From: Clostridia bacterium
GTDB lineage: Bacteria > Bacillota > Clostridia > Christensenellales > CAG-1252
Assembly: GCA_024685775.1 (NCBI GenBank)
Contig: JAIKVL010000038.1
Location: 39,258 to 103,257, forward strand
Length of the DNA stretch: 64,000 nucleotides
Direction of reading: 5' to 3'
Position numbers and translations under genes: made by a program. This document shows positions 24,205 through 64,000 of this stretch, in pieces; within the stretch, counting starts at the first letter, position 1, and each line of letters starts with the position of its first letter. The notes under the pieces are model-generated. The model searched no databases, was not told the origin of the DNA, and saw only the letters and a list, made by a program, of their open reading frames with translations.

Positions 24205-25596
24205 ATGAAACGTAACGACGGAAAACAAAACAGAAACGAAACGCGAATTCGGAGACCGATCAAAAGGACTTTGCTGATCCTTTCCGTTCTCGTTATCGTC
24301 GTCCTTTGCGGGCTGACGACTTTGCTGTCGTATTTATTCGTTTCTTCGATCATTGAAAAAGATAACAGTGAACGCCTTACCGATATCGTTTCTTATATTG
24401 AGACGCGGGTCGACGCCGATGATTTGAAGGCTTGCCGCGACACGGGGGTAAAATCCGCGAAATACGTCGAATTGCAAGCCTTTTTGAATGAATTTATCGA
24501 CGAGTTCGATATTGTCTATCTTTATATCGTCGTTCCGACGAAGACGGAGATGGTCAACGTCATTTCCGCGACCAGCCGAGAAGAGCGCGACGCGGGCGAG
24601 GACGATCTCGAACTCGGCGAGATCAGCGACGCATACACCGAAGAGGAACTCAAACCCTATTGCGACCTGTACGGGAAAAAGGAGATCGGATTTTTTGAAG
24701 AGTCCTCGGATTGGGGAACGTATTTTACCGCCTGTAAAACCCTTTTCGACAGCAACGGAGAGAAAGTCGCGCTGATCTGCGCGGACAGAGATATCAATGC
24801 GATCCGCAGACGCACCGCGATGATGGTCGTTACCGTCGCGGGATCGGTCCTCGCCGCCATCACGATCTTCGCGCTCGTCGTCAGATTCCTGTTCCGAAAG
24901 AACGTGACGGGTCCGCTTTTCAATCTTGAAGAGAACGCGCGTTCCTTCGCGAGCGATGTTAAAAACGGTTCCGAGATAACGAAAACGGATTACGTTTCTC
25001 CCGAGATCAAGACCGGAAACGAGGTCGAGTCGCTTGCCGATGCGATCGAGTATATGGCGACCAGCTTGAAAGAAAGCGCGCAAAAATCCATCGACGCGGC
25101 GCGCGAGTACGCGAAAAATCTGTACGCCGCCCGCGAACAAGCGGACAGCGACGCTTTGACGGGCGTAAAGAACAAGCACGCGTATATCGATCTCGAAGGG
25201 CAGATCAATCAAACGATCGAAGAAGGGAATCCGAAACCGTTTGCGGTCGTGATCTTCGATATCAACGGATTGAAGCGCGTAAACGACACCGAAGGTCACG
25301 TCGCCGGCGACGACTTTATCCGCTCGGCGTGTAAACTTATCTGCGACGTGTTCAAGCACAGCCCCGTCTTCCGCGTAGGCGGCGACGAATTCGCCGTGAT
25401 CGCCGAGGGCGAGGATTATGTCGATATCGAAGAACGGGTCGAAGAAGTCGAAAAGAGAAATCAAAAGAATCGCGAGAGCGGGCAGGCGACGGTCGCATGC
25501 GGGTTCGCGAGATACGACGGAGAAACCGACGTGATGTCCGTCTTTAAGAAAGCGGATGCGCGGATGTATGAAAACAAGCGAAAAGCCGAGCGATAA
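24205..25596 (+). CDS. membrane diguanylate cyclase (Cache-like sensor domain + GGDEF)
   Basis: 463 aa. Two TM helices flank an extracytoplasmic domain (YLYIVVP..GTYFTACKTLFDSNGEKVALICADRDI). C-terminal motifs DALTGVKNKHAY, FDINGLKRVND and RVGGDEFAV are present. Confidence 0.85.
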   Translation: MKRNDGKQNRNETRIRRPIKRTLLILSVLVIVVLCGLTTLLSYLFVSSIIEKDNSERLTDIVSYIETRVDADDLKACRDTGVKSAKYVELQAFLNEFIDEFDIVYLYIVVPTKTEMVNVISATSREERDAGEDDLELGEISDAYTEEELKPYCDLYGKKEIGFFEESSDWGTYFTACKTLFDSNGEKVALICADRDINAIRRRTAMMVVTVAGSVLAAITIFALVVRFLFRKNVTGPLFNLEENARSFASDVKNGSEITKTDYVSPEIKTGNEVESLADAIEYMATSLKESAQKSIDAAREYAKNLYAAREQADSDALTGVKNKHAYIDLEGQINQTIEEGNPKPFAVVIFDINGLKRVNDTEGHVAGDDFIRSACKLICDVFKHSPVFRVGGDEFAVIAEGEDYVDIEERVEEVEKRNQKNRESGQATVACGFARYDGETDVMSVFKKADARMYENKRKAER

Positions 25597-47514: not shown

Positions 47515-48369
47515 ATGAAGAAAGAGAACAAAGAAAAGCTTGTGATAGAGCAAGAAAAGAAACCGAGCCTTTTCAAATCGAAAGAAGGCAAGGATCTTAA
47601 AAAAGAAAAACTTCCGAAGACCGATAAGGATCTTAAAGATGCGGAAGGCATTCGCAAGGAGCTCGGCGAACTTAAAAGGCTCCTTACTCTTCCCGAAGTC
47701 GCGAGGGACGAGCGCCTTTCCCGCAGTTACGTTAAAAGGATCAACGCGATCTCTCCCGTCTCCGAAGCGTTCGACACCTATGCTTTGAGCGGGGACGACG
47801 AGGACGCGGAGAATCTCAGCAAAGAGCTTTTGAAGCTTTCGCTCGAATCCTTCGGTCCGGACGTTCACGCGGGCGCGGGCGTGTGCGTGCGTACATTAAA
47901 TAATAAGGCGCCTCTCGACGAAGAAGAGATCGAAGCGATCCTCAAAAAGCAGTTGCCCATCTTCGGCGTCAAAGTTCGCGCCGCAGAACTCGGCTCGGAC
48001 TTTGTGCGCTTCGAATGCGTCGGCGAAAAGGCGTATGCCGCCGTCTCGCAAATGGAAAAGGACGTTTTCGGAAAGGATATCGCGTTTTCCTTCTACCCGA
48101 TCCTCGTGGCGCAGAATAGGATCTCGGAGGAAGACGTCCGCACGGATATTTTCAACAGCTCGGGGAAGGGCGGGCAGAACGTCAATAAAGTCGAGACCGC
48201 CGTCCGTATGACCCATATCCCCACGGGGATCACCGTTACCTGCCAAGACGAGCGTTCGCAGCTCCAAAATAAGAAGCGCGCCGCGATGATTCTGAAAGAG
48301 CGCGTCGCCGAATACTATGAAAACGAGCAGGAAGCCTTGATAAAAGAGGCAAAATCCAAGCTTTTTTAG
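47515..48369 (+). CDS. peptide chain release factor-like GGQ protein (RF2-derived, atypical N-terminus)
   Basis: 284 aa. The C-terminal part [50 protein letters not shown] is a clear RF-1/GGQ domain. The N-terminal ~90 aa are Lys/Glu-rich and unlike the PCRF domain. Confidence 0.75.
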
Positions 48370-48714: not shown

Positions 48715-49650
48715 ATGAAAAAACGTTTATTGATTACTTCAATCGTAATGATGCTTGTCGTTGCCGTCGCTCTTTCGACCGCAACCTACGCATGGTTTAC
48801 GAGCAACAGCTCCGTTACCGCGAGCACCATTAAAATAACCGCGCAAACCAGTAATGCCAGCGCGCTCGGTATCGGCTGGATCGGATCTTCTGCTTACGGA
48901 ATTGCTTCCAACTCCATCACCGCGACCGGGCCTTCGACGTCTTTCGCGCCTATGGTTCCTGCAGAACTTACGGTCAACTCAACGACAAGTTCCCTTTCCT
49001 TTACCGGCGCTACGATCAAGAGCGTAGGCGGTAACTTTGTCTTCAACACGGATGCCGGTGCAAGAACGCCTTATACTTTCACCGACGGCACCGATGAAGA
49101 GTTCTACGTAAAGAACCTCTCTACGGCGAACGACGTCGCGAACCTTAGAATGACGATCACTTGGGCGCCGGGTGATACCTATACCCGTGCGACTGCTTTC
49201 AAGAGCGGTGAAACCTACTACACGGCGGGTGCGAATAACAGCTATACCGCGGCGGAGCCGCAACCCACTTCCGGAACTTTCGGCGACGGAACCTACTACG
49301 TCAAAGACACGAAAGATGACGATTTGGTCAGAATCGCGGTCTTTGCGAGAGCTGCCGCGAAACCCGAATCAGTTCAGAGCTCCAATTATGTACTTAAAGG
49401 CATCTTTGGTAAGAGTGCGAACCTCGATACCGAATTCGGTACGGTCGCGGCGAACGGAGACGTTGAAGGTCTCTGCACCACTCCGCGTAAGACCGTTACG
49501 GAAATCAACTTCGGTGCGCTCGCTGCGGAACAACAAATCGATATGGTCGTTATCGCTTGGCTCGACGGTGTGGCTTTGAACGATGCAACCGCCGGAAGAG
49601 TATCGTCTTTCAGCCTTGACTTCGCTGCTACCGCTGCGGTTGGCGCTTAA
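48715..49650 (+). CDS. exported Ser/Thr/Ala/Gly-rich protein with TasA/camelysin-like (SipW-type) N-terminus; candidate fibre subunit
   Basis: 311 aa with a perfect SD (TAAGGAGGT). N-terminus MKKRLLITSIVMMLVVAVALSTATYAWFTSNSSVTASTIKIT resembles the TasA/CalY signal region (..GGGTWAAFND / GGGTFAFFSD followed by a beta strand). The C-terminal pattern IAWLDGVALNDATAGRVSSFSLDFAAT is also TasA-like. No LPXTG, SLH or CWB motifs. Monocistronic, lying between a strong promoter and a strong terminator. Confidence 0.55.
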   Translation: MKKRLLITSIVMMLVVAVALSTATYAWFTSNSSVTASTIKITAQTSNASALGIGWIGSSAYGIASNSITATGPSTSFAPMVPAELTVNSTTSSLSFTGATIKSVGGNFVFNTDAGARTPYTFTDGTDEEFYVKNLSTANDVANLRMTITWAPGDTYTRATAFKSGETYYTAGANNSYTAAEPQPTSGTFGDGTYYVKDTKDDDLVRIAVFARAAAKPESVQSSNYVLKGIFGKSANLDTEFGTVAANGDVEGLCTTPRKTVTEINFGALAAEQQIDMVVIAWLDGVALNDATAGRVSSFSLDFAATAAVGA

Positions 49651-49689: not shown

Positions 49690-49717
49690 GGCTACCCGAA
49701 TTCGGGTAGCCTTTTTT
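49690..49717 (+). terminator. rho-independent terminator after the candidate fibre subunit gene
   Basis: Perfect hairpin GGCTACCCGAATTCGGGTAGCC followed by T6. Confidence 0.9.
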
Positions 49718-51586: not shown

Positions 51587-52678
51587 ATGGAAGAAAAAGA
51601 GAAGAAACCTCTGATCGAGGTCAAATATCTTACGAAAAAATTCGACGATCTTTTGGTTCTGAACGAGATCTCGACGACGATCTACGAGGGCGAGCGCGTC
51701 GTCATCGTCGGTCCGTCCGGCGGGGGCAAAAGCACCTTTTTGCGCTGCTTGAACGTCCTCGAAGATCCGACTTCGGGCGAGATCATTTTCGACGGAGACG
51801 ATCTGACCGACTTAAAGATCAATATCAACGTCTGCCGCCAAAAGATGGGAATGGTCTTTCAGCAGTTCAATTTGTTTAATAATCTGACCGTTTTGAAAAA
51901 TATCACGCTCGCGCCGATCCTCGTCGATCGCAAGCGTTATTTCGCCGCGAAGAGAAACAACGCGATCCTGCCGAGATATAACGCCTATCTTGAAAAGCAC
52001 AGCGACAAGATCAAAGCGAAGATCGATAAAAAGATCGCGAAACAAAAGGAGATCGTTCGAAAATGCGACGAGCTTTTGAAACCGATCGAAGAAGAATGGG
52101 CGAAGACGAAAAAGACCGTCGAACGCGCGGGCAAGACTTTCGTTACTTACGACAAGGCTTTGACGCGCAAAAAACTCCGCATCGTTACCAAGATCGAGAA
52201 CGCCGAGCGCGCGATCGATCGGGCAAAATACCCGGAGCCGAAAAAGTATATCGACTTCCCGTATAAGGACGTCAAAGAAATAAAAAAAGCAGCGGAAGAA
52301 AACGCGATGCGTCTTTTGAAGCGCATCGGGCTCGAAGAAAAAGCAAACGTCTATCCTTCGACGCTTTCGGGCGGGCAAAAGCAAAGGATCGCGATCGTTC
52401 GCGCGCTTGCGATGAACCCGAAAGTTATGCTCTTTGACGAACCCACGAGCGCGCTCGACCCCGAAATGGTCGGCGAAGTCCTCGACCTCATCAAGACCAT
52501 CGCCGAAACGGGAATGACGATGATCATCGTTACGCACGAAATGGGCTTCGCGAGAGAAGTCGCGTCCCGCGTCTGCTTTATAGACGGCGGCAAGATCAAA
52601 GAAGAAGCTCCCCCCGAGGAATTCTTCGCGAATCCCCAAGACCCGAGACTGAAAGAGTTTTTGTCGAAGGTGCTGTAA
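51587..52678 (+). CDS. polar amino acid ABC transporter ATPase with a ~114-aa insertion in the helical subdomain
   Basis: Walker [11 protein letters not shown]-loop MVFQQFNLF, signature [14 protein letters not shown], Walker [14 protein letters not shown]-loop VTHEM. 363 aa, compared with ~240 aa for typical GlnQ/ArtM-type ATPases. Confidence 0.85.
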
Positions 52679-52712
52679 GTCGATAAACGCGATTCGCCGC
52701 AGGGGCGGATAT

Positions 52713-52747
52713 TAAAAAAGCTCGTTGTGATCCAACGAGCTTTTTTA
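52713..52747. terminator. bidirectional terminator between convergent ABC ATPase and GGDEF genes
   Basis: AAAAAAGCTCGTTG TGATC CAACGAGCTTTTTT, with an A-run on one side and a T-run on the other. Confidence 0.85.
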
Positions 52748-52779
52748 ATAATTCATCGTTGCTTTGTCAAATTTTATCG

Positions 52780-54135
52780 TTATTCTTTATAAAAACTGCA
52801 GCACGCTTTTCCTGCGTTTTTGCTTTCGTAAAGAGCGACATCCGCGTTCTTCATCAGAGATCTGTCAAGTTTTTTCCCAAACGCGACTCCTGCGCTGAGC
52901 GTCACCTCCGGCGCGCCGTTTTGCGCTTCTGCGGTCAAAAAATCGTTGATGCGTTCGTATTTGCTTTGGATGATCGTTTTGCTGTTTTCGTCAATGCCGA
53001 ACAGGGTTACGGCAAACTCGTCGCCTCCTATGCGGAAGATGCTGTCCGCCGTGCGGAAATTTTCACGCATGGCAGTCACCACGCTTGTCAAAACCTTGTC
53101 GTCCGCAAGATGCCCGTATCGATCATTGATCTGTTTGAAATTGTCGATATCCACGATCAAAAAAGCAAGTTGCCCTTCCTCTGCCGTGTTGAGGATGTTT
53201 TCAAAAGCATTGCGGTTGAGCGCACCGGTCAAACCGTCGTGTTCCGCTTTGAACTTCAAGCGTTTTTGACTGCGGCGGTTGGATTCGTACATCAAGTTGT
53301 AGGCATAGGCAAACATTTTGATTTCGTATCCGCCTTGTACCGGGAGGGGCGCGTCTTTTTCGATATAAGGGATCGCGCGGATGAGCGGCGTGAAGATGCG
53401 GCTTGAAGTTAAGATTACGATCAAAATGGAAAGAGCGATAAACGTGGCGATCAAAATCAGCTCGTAAATCATGGCGATGCGAAGACGGAACTCCGCGCCG
53501 TCCTGTGTCTTTTCAAGTTCCTGAACGAGACTTTTTACACAAAGATCGACTTCGCTTGAGATCGTCCCTTTGGAAGAAGTGTAGTTTCGGTCAAAAAGGA
53601 TATTGGTTGCAAGTTCGGCTTTCCCCAAAGCGGAAAGAGCTTGTTCTTCCTCCGTTAAAACTACGGTGCGAACTCTTTCGTCGTACGTGGAAAGGTCGTC
53701 CCCCGCAGATTCCGCTTTGAGACGCATCGATTTGAACTCGGTATTCATCAAATTGCGGGATTCGATCATTGCTTTTTGCAAATGTTCCGCGGCGGGAGAG
53801 TTCGGAAAATTCTCTTCAATAAAATCGAGGGCGTCATCGCGGCGGCGGTTTTCGTCGGCTTCCGTGAAATAGGCGGTCATATGTTCCGCAGCGCCCGTTG
53901 CCGCAAAGGAGCGGGCCTGATCGGTAAGATAATCGGAAGAAACGATCATTTCTTTGGATTTTTCTTCCCAAGTGACGTAATTTTTTGCGACGTTGATCAG
54001 GTCGCGATAATTCATCCAGTTAAAAACGATAACGACGATAAGAAGAGCGGAAACCAGCGCCATAACAATGGCAAAAATAGTAACCGTGCGCTTCAATGGA
54101 ATTCCATGCTTGCGCACTTGCGAAAAATCTCCCAT
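52780..54135 (-). CDS. membrane diguanylate cyclase (helical periplasmic sensor between two TM helices + GGDEF)
   Basis: 451 aa. TM1 TVTIFAIVMALVSALLIVVIVF and TM2 IAMIYELILIATFIALSILIVIL. Motifs DGLTGALNRNAF, VDIDNFKQINDRYGH and RIGGDEFAV. Divergent from the 54381 operon. Confidence 0.85.
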   Translation of the reverse strand: MGDFSQVRKHGIPLKRTVTIFAIVMALVSALLIVVIVFNWMNYRDLINVAKNYVTWEEKSKEMIVSSDYLTDQARSFAATGAAEHMTAYFTEADENRRRDDALDFIEENFPNSPAAEHLQKAMIESRNLMNTEFKSMRLKAESAGDDLSTYDERVRTVVLTEEEQALSALGKAELATNILFDRNYTSSKGTISSEVDLCVKSLVQELEKTQDGAEFRLRIAMIYELILIATFIALSILIVILTSSRIFTPLIRAIPYIEKDAPLPVQGGYEIKMFAYAYNLMYESNRRSQKRLKFKAEHDGLTGALNRNAFENILNTAEEGQLAFLIVDIDNFKQINDRYGHLADDKVLTSVVTAMRENFRTADSIFRIGGDEFAVTLFGIDENSKTIIQSKYERINDFLTAEAQNGAPEVTLSAGVAFGKKLDRSLMKNADVALYESKNAGKACCSFYKE

Positions 54136-54308
54136 AACCCCTTCCCATCTTTTGTTTTTGAAAACGTTTTCTCAAGATTATACTTACTACTACATAAATT
54201 ATTAGGATATTTTCGCGCGAATGTCAAATAAAAATGGTGAAATAGCGATAATTTTGTAAAGAATTTCAGGAAAACTCTACCAAAAAAAAGATATTTGAAG
54301 AAAAAGGG

Positions 54309-54338
54309 TTTACACAAAATAATAAGTAAATATATAAT
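54309..54338 (+). promoter_or_regulatory. sigma-A type promoter of the 54381-64000+ operon
   Basis: TTTACA (54309-54314), 18-nt spacer, TATAAT (54333-54338), in a very AT-rich divergent region. The perfect palindrome GTGCGCGCAC (54353-54362) lies between the -10 box and the SD. Confidence 0.5.
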
Positions 54339-54380
54339 ATATATGTATAATTTTGTGCGCGCACGTAAAGAGGAGTTGGG

Positions 54381-55322
54381 ATGAAATTGTTTGGCAAGCA
54401 CGTTTCCGAAAAAGACAAGAAGGAGCTGTTGATGCAGCTTCTCGCCGTCGTGCTGTCCGGCATTTTTGTCATTACGCTTGGGGTGGTCAGTTTTGCCTGG
54501 TTTTCACAGAACGTCTCCGTGGAAAACTCCGGTATGCAGGTTGTTGTCTCTTATGAAACGGTGGAGCTTTTGATCGACAGAACGACGGAATACGACGACT
54601 CTTCCCGCTATGAAGGCATGGTAGGAGCGGGCGGCTTTAAGTCGGTGCTTGCCGCAAAAGAATTTGACTTTACCGAGACGTATACGGCCGAAGCGCCCTT
54701 GCTCGCTTATGAGCTTATTGTGGCGGAAAACACCTTCGAAAACAAAAAGTATTTGGTCCCCGGCGCGTACGGTATGTTGACATTTTACATTCGCCCGAAA
54801 ACGGGACACGACGGCGACACGGTGTTTTTCAATCTTTTCTTCGAAGGGTACGCAAACTTTTATGAGGAAGGGCAGGCGGTTTCTACGATTCAACAGGTCA
54901 CCAAGGAAAGCGTTTGCAATTTGTTAAAGGGGCATATTTTGTTTTTTAAGGAAAGAACGGGGGCGGCATATGCCGATTACGTTTATACCGAGCAGATCAC
55001 GGGAGGCGCTTTTAATTATGATATGTCACAGCACGCCAAGTGTTCCGATCCCGGCAAAACGGACCTTTATAAGGTGACGTTGTACTGGGAGTGGCCGCTC
55101 ACCTACTATGCCATCCGTGACGATCTGTCTACCGAGTCCCCCGCAACGACAAAAAAATATCCGACGGAGACGGGGGCGTATGTTGCAAACAACCCTCTTT
55201 ACTTCTACCCCCCGAGTGCGGCGATCGCGACGGATGAAGAAAAAACCGACGCCTATAACGACGGCGATCAGTTGATCGGCGACAACGTGGAATACTTTGT
55301 CGTCCGCATCGGCATTGTTTGA
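54381..55322 (+). CDS. exported protein A with TasA/SipW-type N-terminus (paralogue class of 48715 gene)
   Basis: 313 aa, SD AAGAGGAG. N-terminus ..LLAVVLSGIFVITLGVVSFAWFSQNVSVENSGMQVVVS. Internal LVPGAYGMLTFYIRP and C-terminal YNDGDQLIGDNVEYFVVRI resemble the TasA/camelysin beta-sandwich pattern. Confidence 0.55.
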   Translation: MKLFGKHVSEKDKKELLMQLLAVVLSGIFVITLGVVSFAWFSQNVSVENSGMQVVVSYETVELLIDRTTEYDDSSRYEGMVGAGGFKSVLAAKEFDFTETYTAEAPLLAYELIVAENTFENKKYLVPGAYGMLTFYIRPKTGHDGDTVFFNLFFEGYANFYEEGQAVSTIQQVTKESVCNLLKGHILFFKERTGAAYADYVYTEQITGGAFNYDMSQHAKCSDPGKTDLYKVTLYWEWPLTYYAIRDDLSTESPATTKKYPTETGAYVANNPLYFYPPSAAIATDEEKTDAYNDGDQLIGDNVEYFVVRIGIV

Positions 55323-55329
55323 GGAAAAA

Positions 55330-56055
55330 ATGAAAGGGAAAGGATTGTTACAAGCCCAAAAGATTGCTTTCGTCCTGCGTTTGTTGGTCGTAACTCTTCT
55401 TATGCTCGGCGTCATAGGCGCCGCCACGTTTGCTTGGTATTCTTTCCGTGCCGGGACGGCGGCGTATGTCCCCGTTTTCTCCCCGGAAGCTTTGTACATC
55501 GGCGCGGGACACCGCGACGTGGACGAGGACGTTTACGAAGACATTCGATATTTGTACTTCAACGGGCTTGATGCCGAGGGCGGCGACTATGTGGACAAAG
55601 TTTTCAGCATTTACGGCAAGGGCGTCGGTGCTTACAAGATCCAAATCGCCTACACGACAAACAACTCGTTTTCTTACAGCATTTTTCATGCTACGGAATC
55701 AAAAACCGAGACAGAGGGCGCTGTGCAGTACGTCACGCACCAAGTTCCTGCGGAGGCGTATTTTTATACTGCAGACGGCGAAGCGATCGCGGGGACTTAT
55801 TTGAACAGGACGGAAGAAGACGGAAAAGGAATCGCCACTTCCGACTACCATGCCGCCACGTACGACTCGTACTCTTCCGTTCACAAAAACGCGGAACCCA
55901 TTTACTGGCAGACGACTTCTGCCGAGATGGGGAATAACAGAGGAGATTTTGTCAACTACTATCTGCTTCGTATCTATAAAAACGGCAAAGCCACCAATGA
56001 TCGCGAAACCGACGTTCTCTGTATTGCGGCAAAAGCGGTCACGGTGCATGAATAA
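55330..56055 (+). CDS. exported protein B with TasA/SipW-type N-terminus
   Basis: 241 aa from ATG 55330, 7 nt after the upstream stop. N-terminus ..LLVVTLLMLGVIGAATFAWYSFRAGTAAYVPVF. Confidence 0.5.
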   Translation: MKGKGLLQAQKIAFVLRLLVVTLLMLGVIGAATFAWYSFRAGTAAYVPVFSPEALYIGAGHRDVDEDVYEDIRYLYFNGLDAEGGDYVDKVFSIYGKGVGAYKIQIAYTTNNSFSYSIFHATESKTETEGAVQYVTHQVPAEAYFYTADGEAIAGTYLNRTEEDGKGIATSDYHAATYDSYSSVHKNAEPIYWQTTSAEMGNNRGDFVNYYLLRIYKNGKATNDRETDVLCIAAKAVTVHE

Positions 56056-56064
56056 GAGGGAAAG

Positions 56065-57042
56065 ATGAAGGAACGCAAGGGGAAAATCACATTCGTTTTG
56101 TTGATCGTGATCATCGCGGTTCTTCTTGTCGCGGGTACGGCGATGGGCAGTTATGCCGCCTATATCGGCAGCCGCAGCGCTCAACGTACCGTCGCCACGT
56201 ACGACGCGCAGGGGGAAAGATTTTCGTCCAACACGTTGGTCAGAGGATACAGCAGGGATAACGTCAAAACTCTTTACGTAACCGATTCTTCCGTTGTGCC
56301 GGCGTCTGTCGTTACGATTTGTAATTATGAAAGGGGGAAACAGACGCTTCCCAACTCCGAGCCGATCACGTATTCTTTGCTTTTCCGATTTGTCAAACAC
56401 GATCCTTTATCGGATGCGGGGTATGTTCCGGTGGACGCCGCTTATATGACGGCGAACGCTTTGACCGCTTATACAGCAACGCTTCGCTTGGGGTCGACGG
56501 TGGTCACCTTGAATTCTTCGCACCTCAGCGACAACAGCTTTTCGGGGGCGTTGAATGCCAACATCGCGGATTCCGATTCGTATACTTTGACCTTTGGCAC
56601 GGAGTTCGTTTCCGGAGAACAAGCTCCAAACCTGTACGTCGAGATGGTGGCTACTCCGCAAAACGTGGGATTGCACGCGATCGGCGGAATTTTTAAAACC
56701 GGCGTACGCGCGCCGGGCGCGGCCAATTCTTGGACGGGGGATTTCAGCGACGATAAGGCAAACGCGCCCTCTGTTTACGACGGATACAATTATCTGATTA
56801 CCGGCGTCGGCGAAGGGACGGTCACCTTGACGTGGGATAATACCCGCGTTGAATTGAGCGATTATTCTAAACAGATCCTTCTTTCCATTGAAGGGGCGAC
56901 GCAAACGGGCAGCAGTGTAACCTTCCGCGTTGATTCCGACGTGGAAAGTCGTTACGACTTGCAGTTTTATAAGAGAAACGTCACTACCGAGACGTGGAGC
57001 GATATGCTTGCCACGGTGGTTACGTTCCGATTCGGAGCATAG
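56065..57042 (+). CDS. exported protein C with related N-terminus
   Basis: 325 aa, starting 9 nt after the upstream stop. N-terminus MKERKGKITFVLLIVIIAVLLVAGTAMGSYAAYIGSRSAQRTVATYD. Ser/Thr/Val-rich and beta-rich. Confidence 0.5.
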   Translation: MKERKGKITFVLLIVIIAVLLVAGTAMGSYAAYIGSRSAQRTVATYDAQGERFSSNTLVRGYSRDNVKTLYVTDSSVVPASVVTICNYERGKQTLPNSEPITYSLLFRFVKHDPLSDAGYVPVDAAYMTANALTAYTATLRLGSTVVTLNSSHLSDNSFSGALNANIADSDSYTLTFGTEFVSGEQAPNLYVEMVATPQNVGLHAIGGIFKTGVRAPGAANSWTGDFSDDKANAPSVYDGYNYLITGVGEGTVTLTWDNTRVELSDYSKQILLSIEGATQTGSSVTFRVDSDVESRYDLQFYKRNVTTETWSDMLATVVTFRFGA

Positions 57043-57051
57043 GAGAGGGCT

Positions 57052-60000
57052 ATGAGCAAACGGCTAAGATTTAAAACGAATTTGCTTTTTGCGGCGCTGG
57101 CGGTGTTCTTCTTTGCTATGCTTGTTTTTTCGACAACGTTTTCTTCGGGCGTGACTGCGTATGCGTCCGAGCCGGTGCAGATATACAATTTTTACAGCGT
57201 TTCGGAATTTACCGCCTACGCAAGAGCTTATGCGGCGGGCGACAAAAATCCGGAGGACGTTATTTATCTTACGTACAATGAAGGAAACGAGCTGACCGAT
57301 GATCAATACGTCAGTTTGGGTACTTCAGACAGGCCCTTTGCCGGCACGATCTATATTCCGAGCGTCGGTATCGACACGTTTCGTTTGTTTAACTGTCCGC
57401 TTTTCGATTACGTATCGACCAAAGCCCGCATTATGTACAACGGGACGACGACAAACGCCTCTGTCAAAATCATTCGTGAGGCGGCAAACGAAATTCCTGC
57501 GGAAGGGGTGCTGACTTCGGGCGCGGCGTTTGCAAATCACGTAGTAAAAGGGGAGAGCGCGGCTTTTTGGAATGTGCAACTTCTTCCCTATGAAGGAGAG
57601 GGCTCGTCGGCAAGCAATTACGAGGGGTTGATCGGATCTATTGCAAACGAGGCATCGGTTACCGTCTCTTTGACAAATACCTCTTCTCTTCCCGTTGTAA
57701 GAGCGGGGGATGCAGGCTTGATTTGCGGCACGTTAGGAGAGGATGCCTCTCTTACGGTCGGGACAAGCGGTTCCGGCAATGCCGTCACCGTTACTTCGAC
57801 AGGGAACAATGCCGGCGGGTTGGTCGGTACGATGCTTTCCGGCGCTGAGCTTACGCTTTCTTCCGCGAATAACACTCGGGTAAGTGAGGTCACGGGTAGC
57901 AAATATGCAGGCGGGTTGGTCGGCAGCGCGATCAATCCCGTCGTTACGCTTGGTACGGGTCTCGCTTCGTATGCGATCTCGTCTTCCGTTACGGGGGGAA
58001 GCGGCGCCGGCGGCGTTTTCGGATACTGCAAAACGCAAGCGGCGAGCGAGACTTTCGCGGCGAACAAATACGATTTGGCTAACGGCTTGGCGGTATCGTC
58101 GACAACTTGCGCCGGCGGCTTCTTCGGATTGTTGGACAGCGAATGCGAAGATCTTATCTTTGACGGATGCGCAACAAGCGGCAAGTCCTTTGCTTTTGCT
58201 CTTACTTCGACTTCGGCGCGCGGCGGCGTCGCGGGTAGGTATAAAACGAATGCGCTTACAAACAGCTTTGAGATTTCAAACGTTGATTTTTCGGTTACCG
58301 CCGCCGGATCCGGCGGACAGTCGGCAGGGATTATCGGACAGATTATAGACGGACCCGCATATCTTTCTCTTCATGATATCGAAGTAACGCAAAGAGGAAA
58401 CGCTTTGTCGGGCGGGCTGATCGGCAATCTCGGTAACGGCGGATCTTTTGCCGACGTGAGGGACGTCGTCATAACCGGCGGATTTGATGCGGGACTTATC
58501 GGAAATATGCCGCAAGGCGTTTTGCGCATTCAAGGAGAAACGGATTTTTCTTCTTACAATCAGACTTCAGCCAATGCGGGATTGATCGTGAGAGATCGCG
58601 GGCGCGCTCTTATTTATGCGCTTGGAAACGGTTCGGACGCAGGTTGGACGGTTAAAAGAAACGTAAACAATGATATCGACGACGTTCGCGGGTGGGGCGA
58701 AGTCCTTCGCGCGGATGGAACGATTCTCCGAGAAAGTGATCTTGTCACCGTGGATGGCACGGCGCATACCGTTACTATAAACGCGGCGGCTCCCGCGATC
58801 GGGACGATTACGCAATTTGCTTTGACCGCTTTAAATATTCAATTGAATACGACGACGGCGTCCGGGGCATTGCGTTTTACTTCCGGTGACGCGAACAAGA
58901 GCGCCTCTCTTCTTTCGGGCACGATCGAGTTTATCGCGGATATTACGCTTGCGGGGACGGGCTTGACCGGTTTTACGAGAGATGACGGAGCAAATGACGT
59001 CTTTACGGGAACTCTTGACGGAAACTTGCATACCGTGACTCTTACCACGGGGGAAAAGTACGGACTGCAGGGCAACGGTTCCGCGCTTGCGTCAAATTCC
59101 ACGCAGGGCGCCATCCATCGCCATTTTTACAACGGATTGTTTGCCAAAATCGGAGGCGGAGCGTCGATAAACGATCTCGCAATCGACGGTGATATCAAGA
59201 TACAGCAAAGCGAAAGCGGAATGTTCGCGGGCGCTCTTGCGGCGTATGCAACGGGAGCGGTTTCGATCTCCGCGTTGACCGTTACGGTTGAGCTGGCTTA
59301 TCGCACGACGACGGATTGTTTGATTACTTTCGGAGGCGCTATCGGTACGGCGGTAGGTTCAAACGTCGCCGTTTCCGCGTCGGATTCAAACGTTCATCCC
59401 ATTGTTTCCGATTCGACGGAATCAAGGATCGGGGGCTCGAGTTTCGGCAGGATCGGGGGATTCCTCGGCAGTATGATGCTTGGCAGTACGGACTCTCCCT
59501 CGCAAAGCGTAATGATAGAGAATAGCCTTATCGGATTGACCTATACAGAATCCCCCAATACGTCGAGGGCGTCCGTTTTCGGCGGGGTGATCGCCGTGAT
59601 CGGTAATTCCACTTACGTAAAGGATCGCAGGACGGTCGTTTTGGATACCGTTTCGCTTTCCGTTACGGCAACGGGTACTGCTTCAAACGGTATTTTCGGC
59701 GGGCTATTCGGGACAAATTGGCTTTCTTGCGACGTAACGGTGGATGGGGTGACGGTAAACGCTACGATCAGCGCAACGGGCGGCGTCACGCCTTTCGGCG
59801 GGCTTGTGCAGACGGCGACTGGCAGGTGGGATATTTCGGATATCACCTTAACAAGCGCATCTTACACGTTGCCGAATAACGGCTCGTCGTTCGGTTTTGT
59901 GGCAAACAAGACCCATACTGCGGAGCCGCTTACCTTAAACGGCAACACGATCTATCCCGAAAGCGCGCTCTACCTTGACGTGAACGACACCTCTTCGCAT

Positions 60001-63000
60001 TACGATATCGGGGCGTTGACTTTTACGGGGAGTCCCACCTTTTCGGTCTATGACGAGTTGGTGGCAAGCAGCGTTGCTTTTGGAAGCAACGTGACGGCAA
60101 ACGGGAATTCCGTTGTTTCCGTTACCACGAGCGGCAACGTGATCGATACGACGGGCACCGCTTACAACACCTATCTCAATAAAACCGCTTATGGCAGATC
60201 GTCGGGCGTTGTCAACGCCGGTACGCGGTATTACTACAATCTTGCCTATGCGCGGGCAAATCTTTCGATTGCCAAATACAAGTTTTTGGTTTGGTCGGTC
60301 AAGGAATACGCGCATGCTTCTCTTGCGGCTTGGTTTGCCGCCGAAGCTTCCTTTACGGGCAATTTGGATATGACGGGGGTTTCGTATTATCCGATCAACG
60401 TTTCGGGAACCGTTTCTTTTACGTCCGTCACAATAAAGTTGGATAATATTTTGACGGAATCATCCGTGCATTTTGCTTATCGTTACAACAACGGTTCGTT
60501 GCAGTCTTCCACTATGAGAAGCACGCGCGCAAATACCAATCAACACTATTTGATGCACACTTCCGTCTTTTTGAACGCCGTGGGGACAATCGTTGTAAAC
60601 AACGGCACGTTGCAAGGAAACGTACCCGCCCTTTCCGATACTTCTTGCGGGTTCTTGGTCGCGGGGGTTTTGGGCGGTTCCGACGCGATCAAAGCTAAGT
60701 GCAACTTCTCGTCGTTGACTTTGGACGGCGTGTATATTTCAAACGGCAACGGACATTTTGTCGACACCGCCTACGCCCCTTTGATTATCAACAAAGTAGG
60801 GAAAAACACCACGATCGATTGGGCGGGCGCCGAGCAGACTTCCGCTTACGCTGCTTACGAGGCAAGCGGATATTTTGCCGCTTCGTCTTTGATCGGCGAC
60901 GTGGGCGACGGCGCGGCGCGCGCAATTTATTTGACCTTCGGCGGATTGGCGCTTGACTCTCGTACTTCGCATATTTCCATCGACAACTTCGACACGGTGT
61001 ACGGGACGGGAAGATCGGTTTTCAGTCGCGCAACGATTTTGAATTCCTTCCTTTATTTTGCGGAGAGTTCCGGCAGCTACAATTTTGAGATGGACGAGGA
61101 TCGCACGGGGATAAGCACCGCGACGCACAGCGTTACTTACGGTAAAGAGATCACGTCTTCTTTGGAAAATGTGAATAAGCAAAAAAAATATTACGGCTCG
61201 GAATACTATGTCCACCCGACGCTGTATCAGTCGACGACGGAATATGATTTCTCTTTATCTTTCCATCCTTACGTTTATGTTCCGTACAACCTCGGGGAAT
61301 ATAAGCACGAGATTTCCGTCAACGTCACTTTCAGCAGTGTGATCGCGGGTTGCGGCAAATACGGCGATCCTTACGTGATCGACGACAACGACAAGCTTCC
61401 CATTCTGTCCGAGATCATCGCAGGCACCGACGTGGGCAATACGGTGCAACTGTATTTGCCGGATGATTTAACAAGTTACGATTATACGGGTACTTCTTAC
61501 ACCAAATATCTTTACAACTTCGGCATCACAAGTTTTGAGCCTTCCGACGGCGGTTCTCAGCAAGCCAACGCCAACGTACGCAGATATCTTGCGGGCGCTT
61601 ATTACGTCATCACCAAGGACGTGACGTTGCCCGCTTCGTATACGGCGCTTGGGACGACGTCATCGGAGGAGTACGCCTTCCGCGGCGTGTTGATCGGTAG
61701 GGGAAACCCCATCGTAACCAATAAGTCGAGGAATCCTTTGATTTACTCTTCAAACGGATGCGTGGTCAAGGACCTTACGGTGGAAGTGGATGTGGACTAC
61801 AACAGCAGCGACGTCATTGAACTTGCCGCACCGATGGGCAGTGACGTTTATTCTTACAGCGGCGGTATCCAGTCTTACGGCGCAGTCATTCAGCAAATCA
61901 TGGGTGGCGACACGTTTATCGACAACGTACAAGTGACTTTTACAAACGTCACGTTTTCGGTTACGGCGTTGAATTCTTCGTATTATCCCACGTTGACCCC
62001 CGTCGGTGGATACGTGGGCGTTTTGGTCAACGGAGGATTGATCTTCCGCAATATGACAGGGTCCAACGTCGGGTTGACGGCGTCGGCGTACGACAAAGTC
62101 GCCCATAATGGATATCTTTACGTTAACGCCATCATCGGGCGCGTGATTGCCGGCTACGCTTTCAATGAAAATGAAGTTTATCATGCGACGGAGACGACCG
62201 TCACTCTTAAAAACGGTGAAAAGAATTATACGATTACGGATCTTGTTCTTCCATCCGCGGATTCCGATAAACTAAATGTAACGTACGCTTCCGGCAACAC
62301 GTATGACATAGCAGTCCCCAACGGGCAAGCGTGGTACGTTTTGGGTGCGATCGTAAACAGCGGCGCGGCGTCGGCGTCGTATCACGTTTCCAACGTTAAC
62401 GCATATCAAGCTCTTACGGATTATTGGTCCGCTTATCGCGCTCAAACGACGGCAAGGGCGGGCGCTACGTATGATGCCGTAGGCGTTGCCGGTTTTTCTT
62501 TCGATGAAGACTATACCGATTACGCCGTTTTCGACTCTTATACGGCGGACGGCGCCAAGATTCCCTATATCATCCGCGCATATACGGCAAAGTCCGGATC
62601 CGCGTATTTGGCTCGTTGCATTTCGGAAAACAGTGCCAAAACCAGAATTACGGTTACGAGTGATTGCGATGTCGCACAAGGGTTTCGAGGGGTAGGAAGT
62701 ATTTATATTGATAGCCCATACGTTAGCCTTAATATGATGCGCCTTATCGGCGGAAACCGAACGATCACGCTGCATATGCGTTACGTTGAATACGATCACA
62801 AATCGGTTTCCGCGTATATCGCCACGCCGGCGACCGCAGGATTCGGGTTGTTTAATTATCTTAGGTTCAGCTCTCCGTCCGAAACGAATTCTCTTAACGG
62901 TTTGGTCCTTTCCGGTAGCGTTTATTACGATATGTACACCGTAGAAGGCTACCAAAGCAGGTATTTGTCCGCAAACTATTCGGGCGACAACTATGATGAT

Positions 63001-64000
63001 GTCGCCAACATAAGGAATGAAACGATTGATAACGTCAACAGACCAACGATTCTGTCGGCAGGAGGATTGCTGGGATTTGTGAACGCGGCTTATTACATCA
63101 AGAACGTCACCTTTAACGGGTTGTCCGTGGAAGGGGCGAAATCCGCCGGCGGTTTAATCGGATTGGCTTACAGTAACAATAACAATGACGTTGCTCATTT
63201 GAAATTTGACGGAAATACGACAAATACGGGATATGTCAACGTTGTCGCGGGTTTGCACGCAGGCGGTTTGTTCGGTCAAATTTACAAAAGGAAAACCGAA
63301 ATCATAGGTGCCGACGGCGGAACTGACGTTATCGTTAAAAACATTGAGATGAAAACCGACGTTCCCAATGAAAACAATATGGATTATTACGGCGACATCT
63401 ACAACGGAGTCGGCGGGATCATAGGAAACTACTATAATCTTAACCAAGGAAACGATACAGAAACCATCCACGGGACGCGGACCAAGCAGACCAGGCGTCT
63501 TTATATAAGCAATATACGCGTAAAGAAAGGGACGGAGCCTGCGTTTGTAAAAGTGAGAAACGATTCTTCTACCGCTATGATGGCAAATTATGCAGGCGGG
63601 TTCATCGGGTCGTGCCATAACGTTATCCTGCATATTTACGATTGTTCTTTAGTCGGTGTAAACGTAAGGGCGAACACCGTCGGCGGATTGGTCGGCAGAT
63701 TGACGCAAAACTATTTTATGACCGTGCGGAACGTCACGATAGACGGAAGCGACAAAACGGCATCATTGATCGGCACACGTTTTGCGGGAGGGGCCGTCGG
63801 ATGGTTGACCGGACGTGACGGCTACTATTTCGGTTGCAACGGTTTGAAGGTAAAAGACTACGAAATCATCTCAACCTATACGGAAAACGATATATGTGCG
63901 TCCGGTGGCATTGTCGCGTTTGCGGAAGGAGACAATGTCGCCCTGAACAATCAGTACAGTTTCGTTTGCGATATCAACAATGCGACGGTTACGGGTTGTC
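57052..64000 (+). CDS. giant secreted protein with GLUG-like repeats (partial, continues beyond the window; >2316 aa)
   Basis: Not in the supplied ORF track. ATG at 57052 follows AGGAGAGGG, with an in-frame TAG at 57040. My hand translation of that frame runs to position 64000 without a stop, and the track lists no + strand ORF in that frame across this span. Sec signal MSKRLRFKTNLLFAALAVFFFAMLVFSTTFSSGVTAYA|SEP. At least 15 GLUG-type motifs are present, including NAGGLVGTM, YAGGLVGSA, AGGVFGY, SGGLIGNL, AGGLIGLA, HAGGLFGQI, VGGLVGRL and AGGFIGSC. There is also an FTGTLDGNLHTVTL motif. Confidence 0.85.
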   Translation, partial: MSKRLRFKTNLLFAALAVFFFAMLVFSTTFSSGVTAYASEPVQIYNFYSVSEFTAYARAYAAGDKNPEDVIYLTYNEGNELTDDQYVSLGTSDRPFAGTIYIPSVGIDTFRLFNCPLFDYVSTKARIMYNGTTTNASVKIIREAANEIPAEGVLTSGAAFANHVVKGESAAFWNVQLLPYEGEGSSASNYEGLIGSIANEASVTVSLTNTSSLPVVRAGDAGLICGTLGEDASLTVGTSGSGNAVTVTSTGNNAGGLVGTMLSGAELTLSSANNTRVSEVTGSKYAGGLVGSAINPVVTLGTGLASYAISSSVTGGSGAGGVFGYCKTQAASETFAANKYDLANGLAVSSTTCAGGFFGLLDSECEDLIFDGCATSGKSFAFALTSTSARGGVAGRYKTNALTNSFEISNVDFSVTAAGSGGQSAGIIGQIIDGPAYLSLHDIEVTQRGNALSGGLIGNLGNGGSFADVRDVVITGGFDAGLIGNMPQGVLRIQGETDFSSYNQTSANAGLIVRDRGRALIYALGNGSDAGWTVKRNVNNDIDDVRGWGEVLRADGTILRESDLVTVDGTAHTVTINAAAPAIGTITQFALTALNIQLNTTTASGALRFTSGDANKSASLLSGTIEFIADITLAGTGLTGFTRDDGANDVFTGTLDGNLHTVTLTTGEKYGLQGNGSALASNSTQGAIHRHFYNGLFAKIGGGASINDLAIDGDIKIQQSESGMFAGALAAYATGAVSISALTVTVELAYRTTTDCLITFGGAIGTAVGSNVAVSASDSNVHPIVSDSTESRIGGSSFGRIGGFLGSMMLGSTDSPSQSVMIENSLIGLTYTESPNTSRASVFGGVIAVIGNSTYVKDRRTVVLDTVSLSVTATGTASNGIFGGLFGTNWLSCDVTVDGVTVNATISATGGVTPFGGLVQTATGRWDISDITLTSASYTLPNNGSSFGFVANKTHTAEPLTLNGNTIYPESALYLDVNDTSSHYDIGALTFTGSPTFSVYDELVASSVAFGSNVTANGNSVVSVTTSGNVIDTTGTAYNTYLNKTAYGRSSGVVNAGTRYYYNLAYARANLSIAKYKFLVWSVKEYAHASLAAWFAAEASFTGNLDMTGVSYYPINVSGTVSFTSVTIKLDNILTESSVHFAYRYNNGSLQSSTMRSTRANTNQHYLMHTSVFLNAVGTIVVNNGTLQGNVPALSDTSCGFLVAGVLGGSDAIKAKCNFSSLTLDGVYISNGNGHFVDTAYAPLIINKVGKNTTIDWAGAEQTSAYAAYEASGYFAASSLIGDVGDGAARAIYLTFGGLALDSRTSHISIDNFDTVYGTGRSVFSRATILNSFLYFAESSGSYNFEMDEDRTGISTATHSVTYGKEITSSLENVNKQKKYYGSEYYVHPTLYQSTTEYDFSLSFHPYVYVPYNLGEYKHEISVNVTFSSVIAGCGKYGDPYVIDDNDKLPILSEIIAGTDVGNTVQLYLPDDLTSYDYTGTSYTKYLYNFGITSFEPSDGGSQQANANVRRYLAGAYYVITKDVTLPASYTALGTTSSEEYAFRGVLIGRGNPIVTNKSRNPLIYSSNGCVVKDLTVEVDVDYNSSDVIELAAPMGSDVYSYSGGIQSYGAVIQQIMGGDTFIDNVQVTFTNVTFSVTALNSSYYPTLTPVGGYVGVLVNGGLIFRNMTGSNVGLTASAYDKVAHNGYLYVNAIIGRVIAGYAFNENEVYHATETTVTLKNGEKNYTITDLVLPSADSDKLNVTYASGNTYDIAVPNGQAWYVLGAIVNSGAASASYHVSNVNAYQALTDYWSAYRAQTTARAGATYDAVGVAGFSFDEDYTDYAVFDSYTADGAKIPYIIRAYTAKSGSAYLARCISENSAKTRITVTSDCDVAQGFRGVGSIYIDSPYVSLNMMRLIGGNRTITLHMRYVEYDHKSVSAYIATPATAGFGLFNYLRFSSPSETNSLNGLVLSGSVYYDMYTVEGYQSRYLSANYSGDNYDDVANIRNETIDNVNRPTILSAGGLLGFVNAAYYIKNVTFNGLSVEGAKSAGGLIGLAYSNNNNDVAHLKFDGNTTNTGYVNVVAGLHAGGLFGQIYKRKTEIIGADGGTDVIVKNIEMKTDVPNENNMDYYGDIYNGVGGIIGNYYNLNQGNDTETIHGTRTKQTRRLYISNIRVKKGTEPAFVKVRNDSSTAMMANYAGGFIGSCHNVILHIYDCSLVGVNVRANTVGGLVGRLTQNYFMTVRNVTIDGSDKTASLIGTRFAGGAVGWLTGRDGYYFGCNGLKVKDYEIISTYTENDICASGGIVAFAEGDNVALNNQYSFVCDINNATVTGC

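Follow-up and report, generated by a model that had tools for sequence, protein, structure and literature searches.

A candidate cell-surface fibre or adhesion locus in rumen Clostridia: a four-gene cassette, a divergent diguanylate cyclase gene and a possible link to CoCoPALM

The A0 gene, the four-gene cassette and the giant exoprotein

The window analysed here is a 64,000-nt stretch of DNA from a rumen-type Clostridia metagenome-assembled genome (MAG; contig JAIKVL010000038.1), and its last part contains a cassette of four tightly packed genes, which encode three proteins with N-terminal signal-anchors (A1, A2 and A3) and a giant exoprotein. The cassette is divergent from a gene for a GGDEF sensor cyclase, and a separate gene, A0, encodes a protein whose N-terminus resembles those of A1-A3. 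We conclude that the cassette probably belongs to a cell-surface apparatus for fibre formation or adhesion that has so far not been characterised. Window genes carry the locus tags K5753_07315, _07340 and _07355 in the source MAG, and the NCBI protein K5753_07315 is 100% identical to A0. A first-pass annotation, made from the sequence alone, had proposed a fibre system of TasA type with a giant adhesin at this locus; its observations were largely correct, and its interpretation is partly supported. The genes and control elements are as follows.

48715-49650, + strand: A0, open reading frame (ORF) of 311 amino acids (aa); monocistronic
49690-49711, no strand assigned: strong bidirectional intrinsic terminator (9-bp stem with 7 G-C pairs, T-run), which closes the A0 unit
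52711-52752, no strand assigned: bidirectional terminator separating the convergent ABC-ATPase and GGDEF genes
52780-54135, - strand: GGDEF sensor cyclase, ORF of 451 aa; PF00990; divergent from A1
54136-54380, no strand assigned: AT-rich divergent control region of 245 nt between the GGDEF gene and A1
54227-54198, - strand: promoter-like site of the GGDEF gene, TTGACA-18-AATAAT, 11/12
54309-54338, + strand: promoter-like site of the cassette, TTTACA-18-TATAAT, 11/12
54381-55322, + strand: A1, ORF of 313 aa; signal-anchor, then beta-sandwich with helices
55330-56055, + strand: A2, ORF of 241 aa; signal-anchor, then the conserved motif YAPIxSPEALYIGAGH
56065-57042, + strand: A3, ORF of 325 aa; signal-anchor, then the conserved motif YTNSxxAQRTIAxYDxxGERFSSNYL
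57052-64000, + strand: giant exoprotein, ORF open for 2,316 codons up to the window end

The genes A1, A2, A3 and giant form one coupled operon. The gaps A1/A2, A2/A3 and A3/giant are 7, 9 and 9 nt, respectively, in agreement with the first-pass annotation, and a Shine-Dalgarno sequence is present at each ATG. An alternative start of A2, a TTG at 55297, is less likely because the ATG carries a ribosome-binding site. The AT-rich intergenic region that had been pointed out earlier corresponds to the 245-nt spacer, whose two promoter-like sites point apart; a promoter consensus scan of the spacer as a whole showed no enrichment over shuffled controls. A0 has a promoter-like site of its own. No c-di-GMP (cyclic diguanylate) or other riboswitch was found upstream of A0 and A1, where the only Rfam matches were sub-threshold and terminator-driven, and the sub-threshold Rfam matches at 52711-52752 were due solely to the hairpin AAAAAAGCTCGTTG...CAACGAGCTTTTTT. 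The G+C content at third codon positions was 0.58-0.63 for A0, the GGDEF gene and the cassette compared with 0.63-0.73 for the neighbouring genes; the AT-richer third positions described previously are therefore present, although the difference is modest.

Neighbourhood look-ups and a one-genome-per-species scan yielded 34 cassette loci beyond the window, almost all of them in rumen MAGs from buffalo, yak, goat and cattle. Local mapping with hidden Markov models (HMMs) revealed that A1, A2, A3 and giant adjoin one another and keep this order in every locus in which the contig permitted the comparison, with A1 identities ranging from 23 to 76%; the exception was the L012-type clade, which reads A1-giant-A2-A3. 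A2 orthologues were present in every cassette locus whose contig extends that far, and clustering of all other ORFs around the cassette identified no further consistently adjacent family. The cassette is a discrete four-gene unit that occurs in many genomic contexts, and the co-conservation on which the earlier proposal depended was borne out.

The window contains the first 2,316 residues of a giant protein with an expected length of ~3,300. The copy recorded for the source MAG (P0176) is 100% identical to it, is annotated as partial and ends at 2,393 aa, which indicates that the contig stops ~230 nt past the window end. The first-pass annotation had made its reading depend on the continuity of this ORF beyond the window. 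We found 288 homologues; the complete ones among the 120 matches listed have 3,197-3,781 aa, and the ORFs of orthologous giants run without interruption for 3,230-3,780 aa. The homologues among these matches originate from Clostridia, Oscillospiraceae, Ruminococcus or Lachnospiraceae metagenome bins and have no precomputed Pfam domain. The residues G, S, T, A and V are frequent in the giant, which begins with a predicted signal of the ordinary Sec type (AYA↓SEP, A38↓S39). A full-length orthologue (P0177, 66% identity) also has an N-terminal Sec signal, whereas no wall anchor and no C-terminal transmembrane segment were found in the full-length orthologues; a PDB sequence search with full-length P0177 identified no relative.

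The description of the giant as packed with GLUG repeats could not be maintained. Pfam and NCBIfam searches with the whole protein gave nothing, GLUG (PF07581) being absent at E<=1, and a scan of 300-aa pieces gave one faint match at nt 63673-63747 (11.6 bits, E=0.41; the gathering score is 20.5 bits). Approximately 10 xGG[LIVF]xG motifs occur in two clusters (aa 254-453 and aa 2003-2284) at a spacing of 29-38 aa, which would be compatible with beta-helical coils. In the locus L010 (22757-29969, contig k141_737317), the orthologous giant and a response-regulator-GGDEF-EAL gene are followed downstream by a called gene of 10,929 residues, which is still larger than the giant and runs off the fetched locus.

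The shared N-terminal module and the mature domains of A0-A3

The overall pairwise identity among A0-A3 is only 21-25%. Comparison of the family profiles using hhalign gave probabilities of 95% for A0-A1, 91% for A0-A2 and 94% for A1-A2; A3 matched A0, A1 and A2 at 58-62%, more weakly than the other pairs matched each other. These matches were limited to the first 34-55 columns, which cover the signal-anchor, an aromatic motif and the following strand. The four N-terminal motifs quoted in the first-pass annotation are present, and we regard the module common to A0-A3, as judged by profile comparison, as statistically real, though weaker for A3.

The predicted cleavage sites are TYA↓WF in A0 (A26↓W27), SFA↓WF in A1 (A39↓W40), TFA↓WY in A2 (A35↓W36) and SYA↓AY in A3 (A31↓A32). 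In A0 the signal-anchor spans aa 1-26 and is followed by a conserved, beta-prone segment (aa 27-45). Residues were counted in 37-80 members per family (230 sequences in all): the residue at -1, which precedes the aromatic pair, was A, G or S in 229 of the 230 sequences, and S, T, V or A occupied position -3 across the four families. The two residues after the cut are W-F in the A0, A1 and A2 families, W40 and F41 of A1 being almost invariant, and A/I-Y/F in the A3 family. The conservation at -1 and -3 is the classic pattern of a type I signal peptidase site, and cleavage is predicted on this pattern.

When the N-termini were scanned alone, TIGR04088 (SipW-dependent-type signal peptide; curated cutoff, 19 bits) was the top NCBIfam match of A0, at 18.5 bits (E=0.0016) and thus just below the cutoff, and of A1, at 15.2 bits. 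It was also the top match of the A0 homologue P0074 (17.8 bits), which bears the Joint Genome Institute label 'SipW-like signal peptide'; the N-termini of A2 and A3 gave no match to this model. These sub-cutoff matches, the conserved -1 and -3 positions and the S26B peptidases encoded beside the cassettes of relatives (see below) support the earlier suggestion that the N-termini are of the SipW type.

The segment that follows the predicted cut ranks among the best-conserved stretches of both A0 and A1 (in A0, WFTSNxxVTAS(T/S)(V/I)x(L/M)T), and yet the monomer models give it a predicted local distance difference test score (pLDDT) of less than 50 (A0, aa 27-41; A1, aa 39-57). A conserved segment with a low pLDDT in the monomer would fit a donor-strand role. 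Consistent with the first-pass annotation, regular-expression searches of A0-A3, the window giant and its orthologues P0177 and P0179 identified neither an LPXTG motif nor a prepilin motif (G↓F(T/S)LxE). Three A0 paralogues (333, 440 and 324 aa) are grouped with two small paralogous proteins (147 and 152 aa) in the locus L001 (10001-14646); the first 31 residues of two of these paralogues are near-identical to those of the window A0, and their mature domains are only 32-44% identical.

AlphaFold2 gave confident models of A0 (pLDDT 88; predicted template modelling score, 0.80) and A1 (86.8 and 0.76, respectively). In both models an N-terminal helix and a linker of low confidence precede a beta-sandwich, which is all-beta in A0 and carries additional helices in A1. 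Full-length A0-A3 had no match in Pfam or NCBIfam at E<=1, PF12389 included, and PDB searches with profiles of 111 A0 relatives and 55 full-length A1 relatives returned nothing at E<=10. Alignment of each family with TasA using hhalign gave probabilities of 0.06-0.2%; the TasA query sequence was verified to be identical to chain 8aur_A. Foldseek searches of the PDB with the A0 and A1 models returned nothing at E<=1e-3. For A0, the list was headed by carbohydrate-binding modules and jelly rolls of generic type (best E=0.023), and for A1 by the CFA/I pilin CfaB (E=0.065); the TasA fibre 8aur ranked 13th for A1 (E=0.19; template modelling (TM) scores, 0.19/0.24) and was outside the top 50 for A0. 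The first-pass annotation had itself tied its assignment of these proteins to the TasA/camelysin family to a fold or HMM match of that kind; since none was found, the assignment fails or is at best open. On the evidence of these searches and models, A0-A3 are not demonstrable members of the TasA family.

The A0 superfamily, which has no Pfam model, comprises 2,725 clusters at 50% identity with E<=1e-3, of which 566 have E<=1e-10. No Pfam domain was found in 83 distant members, and a scan of these 83 for a bridging family identified only weak matches to SAG1386/EF1546 and TIGR04088 (TIGR04088 in 9 of 83). In one subset of the superfamily (P0329-P0416; ~470-550 aa), the A0 profile matched in two stretches, one N-terminal and one C-terminal, which indicates a ~200-250-aa insertion in the middle of the sandwich domain.

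Peptidases, a McrB-like GTPase and c-di-GMP enzymes at related loci

The closest relatives of the window locus (L004/L010, L013, L014, L015 and L021) show 48-76% A1 identity. Upstream of the divergent GGDEF gene, these relatives encode an S26 peptidase, a 520-aa AAA protein, a DUF2357 protein (<=~960 aa), a second S26 peptidase and a GGDEF-EAL protein. The same peptidase-GTPase-DUF2357-peptidase core is located beside the cassette in the distant locus L012, whose giant is 29% identical and which additionally contains genes for an EAL protein, an A0-like protein and a membrane protein, g249. An S26B peptidase, usually twofold, adjoins the cassette in 7 lineages, and the pair of GTPase and DUF2357 genes was found in L004, L012, L013, L021, L023 and 80 metagenome loci.

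The S26 peptidases beside the cassette matched TIGR02228 at 71.6 bits (cutoff, 51.85) and also the SipW model NF046067; they contain SMxP and H motifs, an N-terminal and a C-terminal transmembrane segment and, at the C-terminus, a charged tail. By these features, we assign the peptidases of the relatives to the archaeal/SipW type (S26B). The AAA protein belongs to the McrB clade of GTPases; its N-terminus contains two transmembrane helices, and it has a coiled coil, Walker A/B motifs and the motif GTANNDDS. Its conservation (55-95% identity) is far above that of the cassette proteins. The DUF2357 (McrC-like) partner has a long coiled coil rich in E, K and R; Pfam showed no nuclease domain in it. 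In the 960-aa DUF2357 protein of L004 (2361-5243), an internal duplication was detected, residues ~1-150 being similar to ~640-790 (BLAST, 32% over 154 aa), and the N-terminal copy weakly matches the PADLOC candidate family PDC-S18.

A McrB-clade GTPase whose N-terminus is FtsB-like (transmembrane and coiled-coil), a McrC homologue with a coiled coil and signal-peptidase-family proteins make up the set that Bell et al. 2024 name 'CoCoPALM' in two or three sentences, deferring its description (PMC11090510); our literature search found no later paper describing it. In its predicted components, the S26-GTPase-DUF2357-S26 block of the relatives matches CoCoPALM. The first-pass annotation had missed this McrB-like GTPase/McrC-like pair flanked by two peptidases, and we regard the connection to a named-but-undescribed McrBC-derived system as the most interesting part of the present analysis.

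A metagenome scan with the GTPase identified at least 447 relatives, of which the best 80 loci, from rumen and many human-gut samples, were mapped. Together with six CoCoPALM loci found earlier, they represent 34 lineages at 90% GTPase identity, many on short contigs. The following genes were found near the GTPase gene.

S26 peptidase: 30 of 34 lineages
DUF2357 protein: 30 of 34 lineages
g249: 21 of 34 lineages
A0-family gene: 20 of 34 lineages
EAL gene: 19 of 34 lineages
A1-like gene: 13 of 34 lineages
GGDEF gene: 11 of 34 lineages
Giant: 7 of 34 lineages

The recurrent order was A0-like/EAL/g249/(A0-like)/S26/GTPase/DUF2357/S26/g140/g75/A1-like/giant. These counts suggest that A0-type proteins are the commonest putative clients of the core and that the giant cassette is an optional add-on. 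The first-pass annotation had placed the separately transcribed gene at 48715 in the same wider system as the cassette, and the A0-family genes beside the peptidase/GTPase core in 20 of the 34 lineages support that placement. An ordinary restriction system that neighbours the cassette by chance was rejected as an explanation of the pair, given the S26-GTPase-DUF2357-S26 order in 30 of the 34 lineages and the absence of a detectable nuclease domain. A plasmid search with the GTPase returned generic McrB-like AAA proteins only.

The protein g249 is membrane-anchored, with ~250 aa and a conserved motif of its own, Y(V/I)xS(L/V)(F/Y)xK(F/Y)GSFTV, after the transmembrane segment (L012, 2343-3092). 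Its gene, which the window lacks, is nearly always located between the EAL gene and the first peptidase gene; the C-terminal domains of g249 and A0 show weak similarity (hhalign, 64%). A locus containing both CoCoPALM and a giant was found near-unchanged in 35 independent human-gut assemblies (L076-L108, L115 and L119), in the order A0-like, EAL, g249, S26, GTPase, DUF2357, S26, g140, g75, A1-like, giant, and its carrier is therefore a prevalent human-gut species.

The gene at 52780-54135 (- strand) encodes a genuine diguanylate cyclase with intact motifs, as the first-pass annotation had recognised. Its product matches PF00990 (4.1e-31) and TIGR00254 (7e-31), and two transmembrane regions around a ~185-aa extracytoplasmic domain are followed by the GGDEF domain. 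The sequence RTAD-x5-GGDEF, which combines the RxxD I-site and the active site, is intact, and RTADSIFRIGGDEF is present. The L010 orthologue is 60.6% identical and occupies the same divergent position; the gene is also kept in L013, L014, L015, L017 and L021. GGDEF/EAL genes occur within 10 kb of 9 of the 22 cassette loci that have at least 8 kb of upstream sequence, a recurrence that supports the proposed link to c-di-GMP. A second GGDEF protein (463 aa; GGDEF HMM, 4e-16) is encoded in the window at 24205-25596.

An operon for an amino-acid transporter of the ATP-binding cassette (ABC) type abuts the GGDEF gene just beyond the bidirectional terminator at 52711-52752. According to our locus maps, this terminator is the left edge of the GGDEF and cassette module, and synteny with the CoCoPALM-carrying relatives breaks there. 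In the related genome L002 the order is ior - DAGK - RF-like gene - A0 - ABC transporter, with neither the GGDEF gene nor the cassette, which suggests that the module was inserted beside an ancestral A0-ABC arrangement. The transporter ATPase (51587-52678, 363 aa) contains a ~110-aa K/E-rich, coiled-coil-like insertion that splits the halves of its ABC domain; the insertion is retained in the L002 orthologue (375 aa), in which ABC_tran appears as two matches. Directly upstream of A0, a 284-aa protein with an RF-1/GGQ peptidyl-tRNA hydrolase domain and a ~60-aa K/E-rich N-terminal extension is encoded at 47515-48369, and the synteny of this gene is held in L002 and L003.

Possible functions of the locus and comparison with known systems

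We lean towards a reading in which the window region supplies the structural components of a secreted assembly on the cell surface, built in a five-step fibre/adaptor scheme. A0-A3 would be inserted via Sec by their N-terminal signal-anchors, and an archaeal/SipW-type (S26B) peptidase would cut them between the conserved small residue and the aromatic pair. The beta-prone N-terminal segment thereby exposed, the sole part common to the four families, may serve for docking or as a donor strand, in the manner of TasA/TapA and BsaA. A0, a candidate major fibre subunit, would polymerise as the bulk subunit, and A1-A3, which always occur 1:1:1 with the giant, would be minor or adaptor subunits that tie the anchorless ~3,300-aa giant to the fibre or the cell. 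The divergent cyclase and the recurrent EAL/GGDEF genes may place the apparatus under c-di-GMP control, which would suit attachment or matrix formation in the rumen and gut. Processing and assembly in the relatives would depend on the adjacent S26B/GTPase/DUF2357/S26B block, which here, if present, would lie outside the window; we purely infer that the CoCoPALM GTPase might gate or drive either process.

Several observations weigh against this reading. The mature domains resemble neither TasA, CalY-type proteins and AbpA nor any pilin to a significant degree, and TIGR04088 matched sub-threshold in A0 and A1 and not in A2 and A3. In the 64-kb window we detected no S26 peptidase gene, as the first-pass annotation had stated for a sipW-like peptidase, and no CoCoPALM core gene (McrB-clade GTPase, DUF2357); the window would therefore hold putative client genes and not the core. 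Of the 22 cassette loci whose upstream sequence extends for at least 8 kb, only 6 have the core adjacent. Finally, A0 is kept in its own housekeeping context without the cassette in L002, and the tie of A0 to the cassette operon is therefore indirect.

A more far-reaching reading, which we put forward tentatively, is that A0-A3 and the giant are clients of an undescribed Gram-positive appendage machinery, consisting of a membrane McrB-type GTPase hexamer, a nuclease-less McrC-like partner and two SipW-type peptidases. This would be a nucleoside triphosphate-dependent pilus pathway derived from a restriction system, controlled by c-di-GMP and widespread in rumen and human-gut Clostridia. The GTPase and its McrC-like partner would couple to the peptidases via the cytoplasmic coiled-coil tails of the latter, and subunits that share the N-terminal module would be processed and assembled under the gating or driving action of this machinery.

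The main rival of the favoured fibre/adaptor reading, although in our view rather doubtful, is that the signal-anchors are uncleaved type II (N-in) anchors and that A1-A3 form an export, peptidoglycan-crossing or tethering complex for the giant, with no fibre. The aromatic motif at the outer membrane face would then be an interaction or positioning element instead of a cut site. The AlphaFold2 helix of A1, which runs through the motif (H10-42), the TIGR04088 results and the lack of an anchor in the giant itself are consistent with this model; moreover, the 1:1:1:1 gene stoichiometry suits a complex over a polymer, and secretion of the large protein BsaC of Clostridium perfringens needs pilin-like helpers (PMC11580942). 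However, small residues are conserved at -1 and -3 in four families, two dedicated S26B peptidases co-occur in many lineages, and the module is common to A0, whose gene is equipped with a promoter-like site of its own and a strong terminator and which appears to represent an abundant secreted structural family.

It is improbable that A0-A3 are highly diverged TasA homologues forming true TasA/camelysin fibres, with a jelly-roll fold and donor-strand exchange. Their signal type is like that of TasA, and both the 8aur fibre and the donor-strand pilin CfaB are among the weak Foldseek matches of A1. The sole local hhalign alignment of A0 with TasA, at the C-terminal strand (LNDATAGRVSSFSLDFAATA vs VQNKYQGNSIKLQFSFEATQ), is not significant (E=0.4), however, and neither the PF12389, PDB-profile and hhalign searches described above, nor TM-scores of ~0.2, nor the 83 distant A0-superfamily members without a Pfam domain favour such homology. 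It is very unlikely that the cassette serves in defence rather than adhesion, as the effector or surface-remodelling arm of an immunity system derived from McrBC, even though the GTPase is in the McrB clade and matches the PADLOC candidate family PDC-M26A (3e-36), the L008/L011 cassette adjoins AbiH, HicB and Gp49-type genes and the genomic contexts of the cassette vary, because A0-A3 and the giant have no PADLOC match, an export signal is present in each of these five proteins, the McrC-like partner has no nuclease domain in Pfam and no relatives were found in viral contigs; c-di-GMP enzymes are, moreover, typical of adhesion and biofilm loci. The absence of relatives in viral contigs also led us to reject a phage origin.

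The families of A0 (~2,700 clusters), A1, A2, A3 and the giant have no domain annotation, yet they are common in rumen and human-gut Clostridia, whose ecology is shaped by attachment to plant fibre, mucus or partner cells. The tie of these families to SipW-type peptidases, c-di-GMP enzymes and the CoCoPALM GTPase provides a concrete, testable hypothesis, which bears on the display of anchorless giant exoproteins by Gram-positive anaerobes and on the role of a McrBC-derived GTPase in an apparently non-defence context.

By analogy, the closest characterised systems are tapA-sipW-tasA of Bacillus subtilis and sipW-bsaA-bsaB-bsaC of C. perfringens. In TasA, the donor strand consists of the 11 residues that come first once SipW has cut the protein; TapA resembles TasA there only (PMC9674648). 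The paralogues at our locus likewise share an N-terminal segment only, which in TasA/TapA is the donor strand (PMC9674648). The two systems also share the SipW-cognate signal type, here a predicted one, in which a small residue precedes an aromatic one at the cleavage site, as well as the absence of LPXTG and a dedicated S26B peptidase gene next to those of its substrates (here putative ones, in relatives of the locus). In contrast to the Bacillus system, the mature domains of A0-A3 have no detectable sequence or structure similarity to TasA, and three accessory proteins and a ~3,300-aa giant take the place of TapA alone. The peptidases are duplicated in the relatives, where they flank the McrB/McrC-like pair, and absent from the window; the link is to c-di-GMP here and to SinR in B. 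subtilis.

Besides SipW, the bsa operon encodes two paralogues of the TasA class and a larger protein that is secreted and putatively adhesive (PMC11580942). The first-pass annotation, which knew of no characterised system combining several TasA-class paralogues with a GLUG giant protein, had missed this analogous clostridial operon, which already joins such paralogues and a larger secreted protein (PMC11580942); its oligomers are membrane-anchored by a route other than sortase (PMC11580942). However, BsaA and BsaB are recognisable remote TasA homologues, unlike A0-A3; BsaC is a 70-kDa protein with a von Willebrand factor type A domain, whereas the giant has ~3,300 aa and no known domains; and the bsa operon has no McrBC-like component.

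The LapA/LapD/LapG system of Pseudomonas is Gram-negative and combines type I secretion and RTX repeats with retention controlled by a periplasmic protease. Our locus resembles it in encoding a very large repetitive exoprotein beside c-di-GMP turnover genes, with a plausible role in attachment, but has no homology to Lap components. The archaeal bundling pili AbpA and other TasA-like donor-strand filaments differ from the proteins described here in that no significant Foldseek or profile match was obtained, the present host is bacterial and a giant partner is encoded; they are similar in processing by an archaeal-type signal peptidase, which is predicted for the proteins here, and in beta-sandwich subunits, which in those filaments are joined by an N-terminal donor strand (PMC9245690). 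The publication on CoCoPALM gives no substrates, giant protein or c-di-GMP link, and the window lacks the core genes. The relatives of the window locus nevertheless resemble CoCoPALM in a GTPase with N-terminal transmembrane segments, a coiled coil and the GTANNDDS (NxD-type) motif, in a DUF2357 McrC homologue with a long coiled coil and in signal-peptidase-family proteins.

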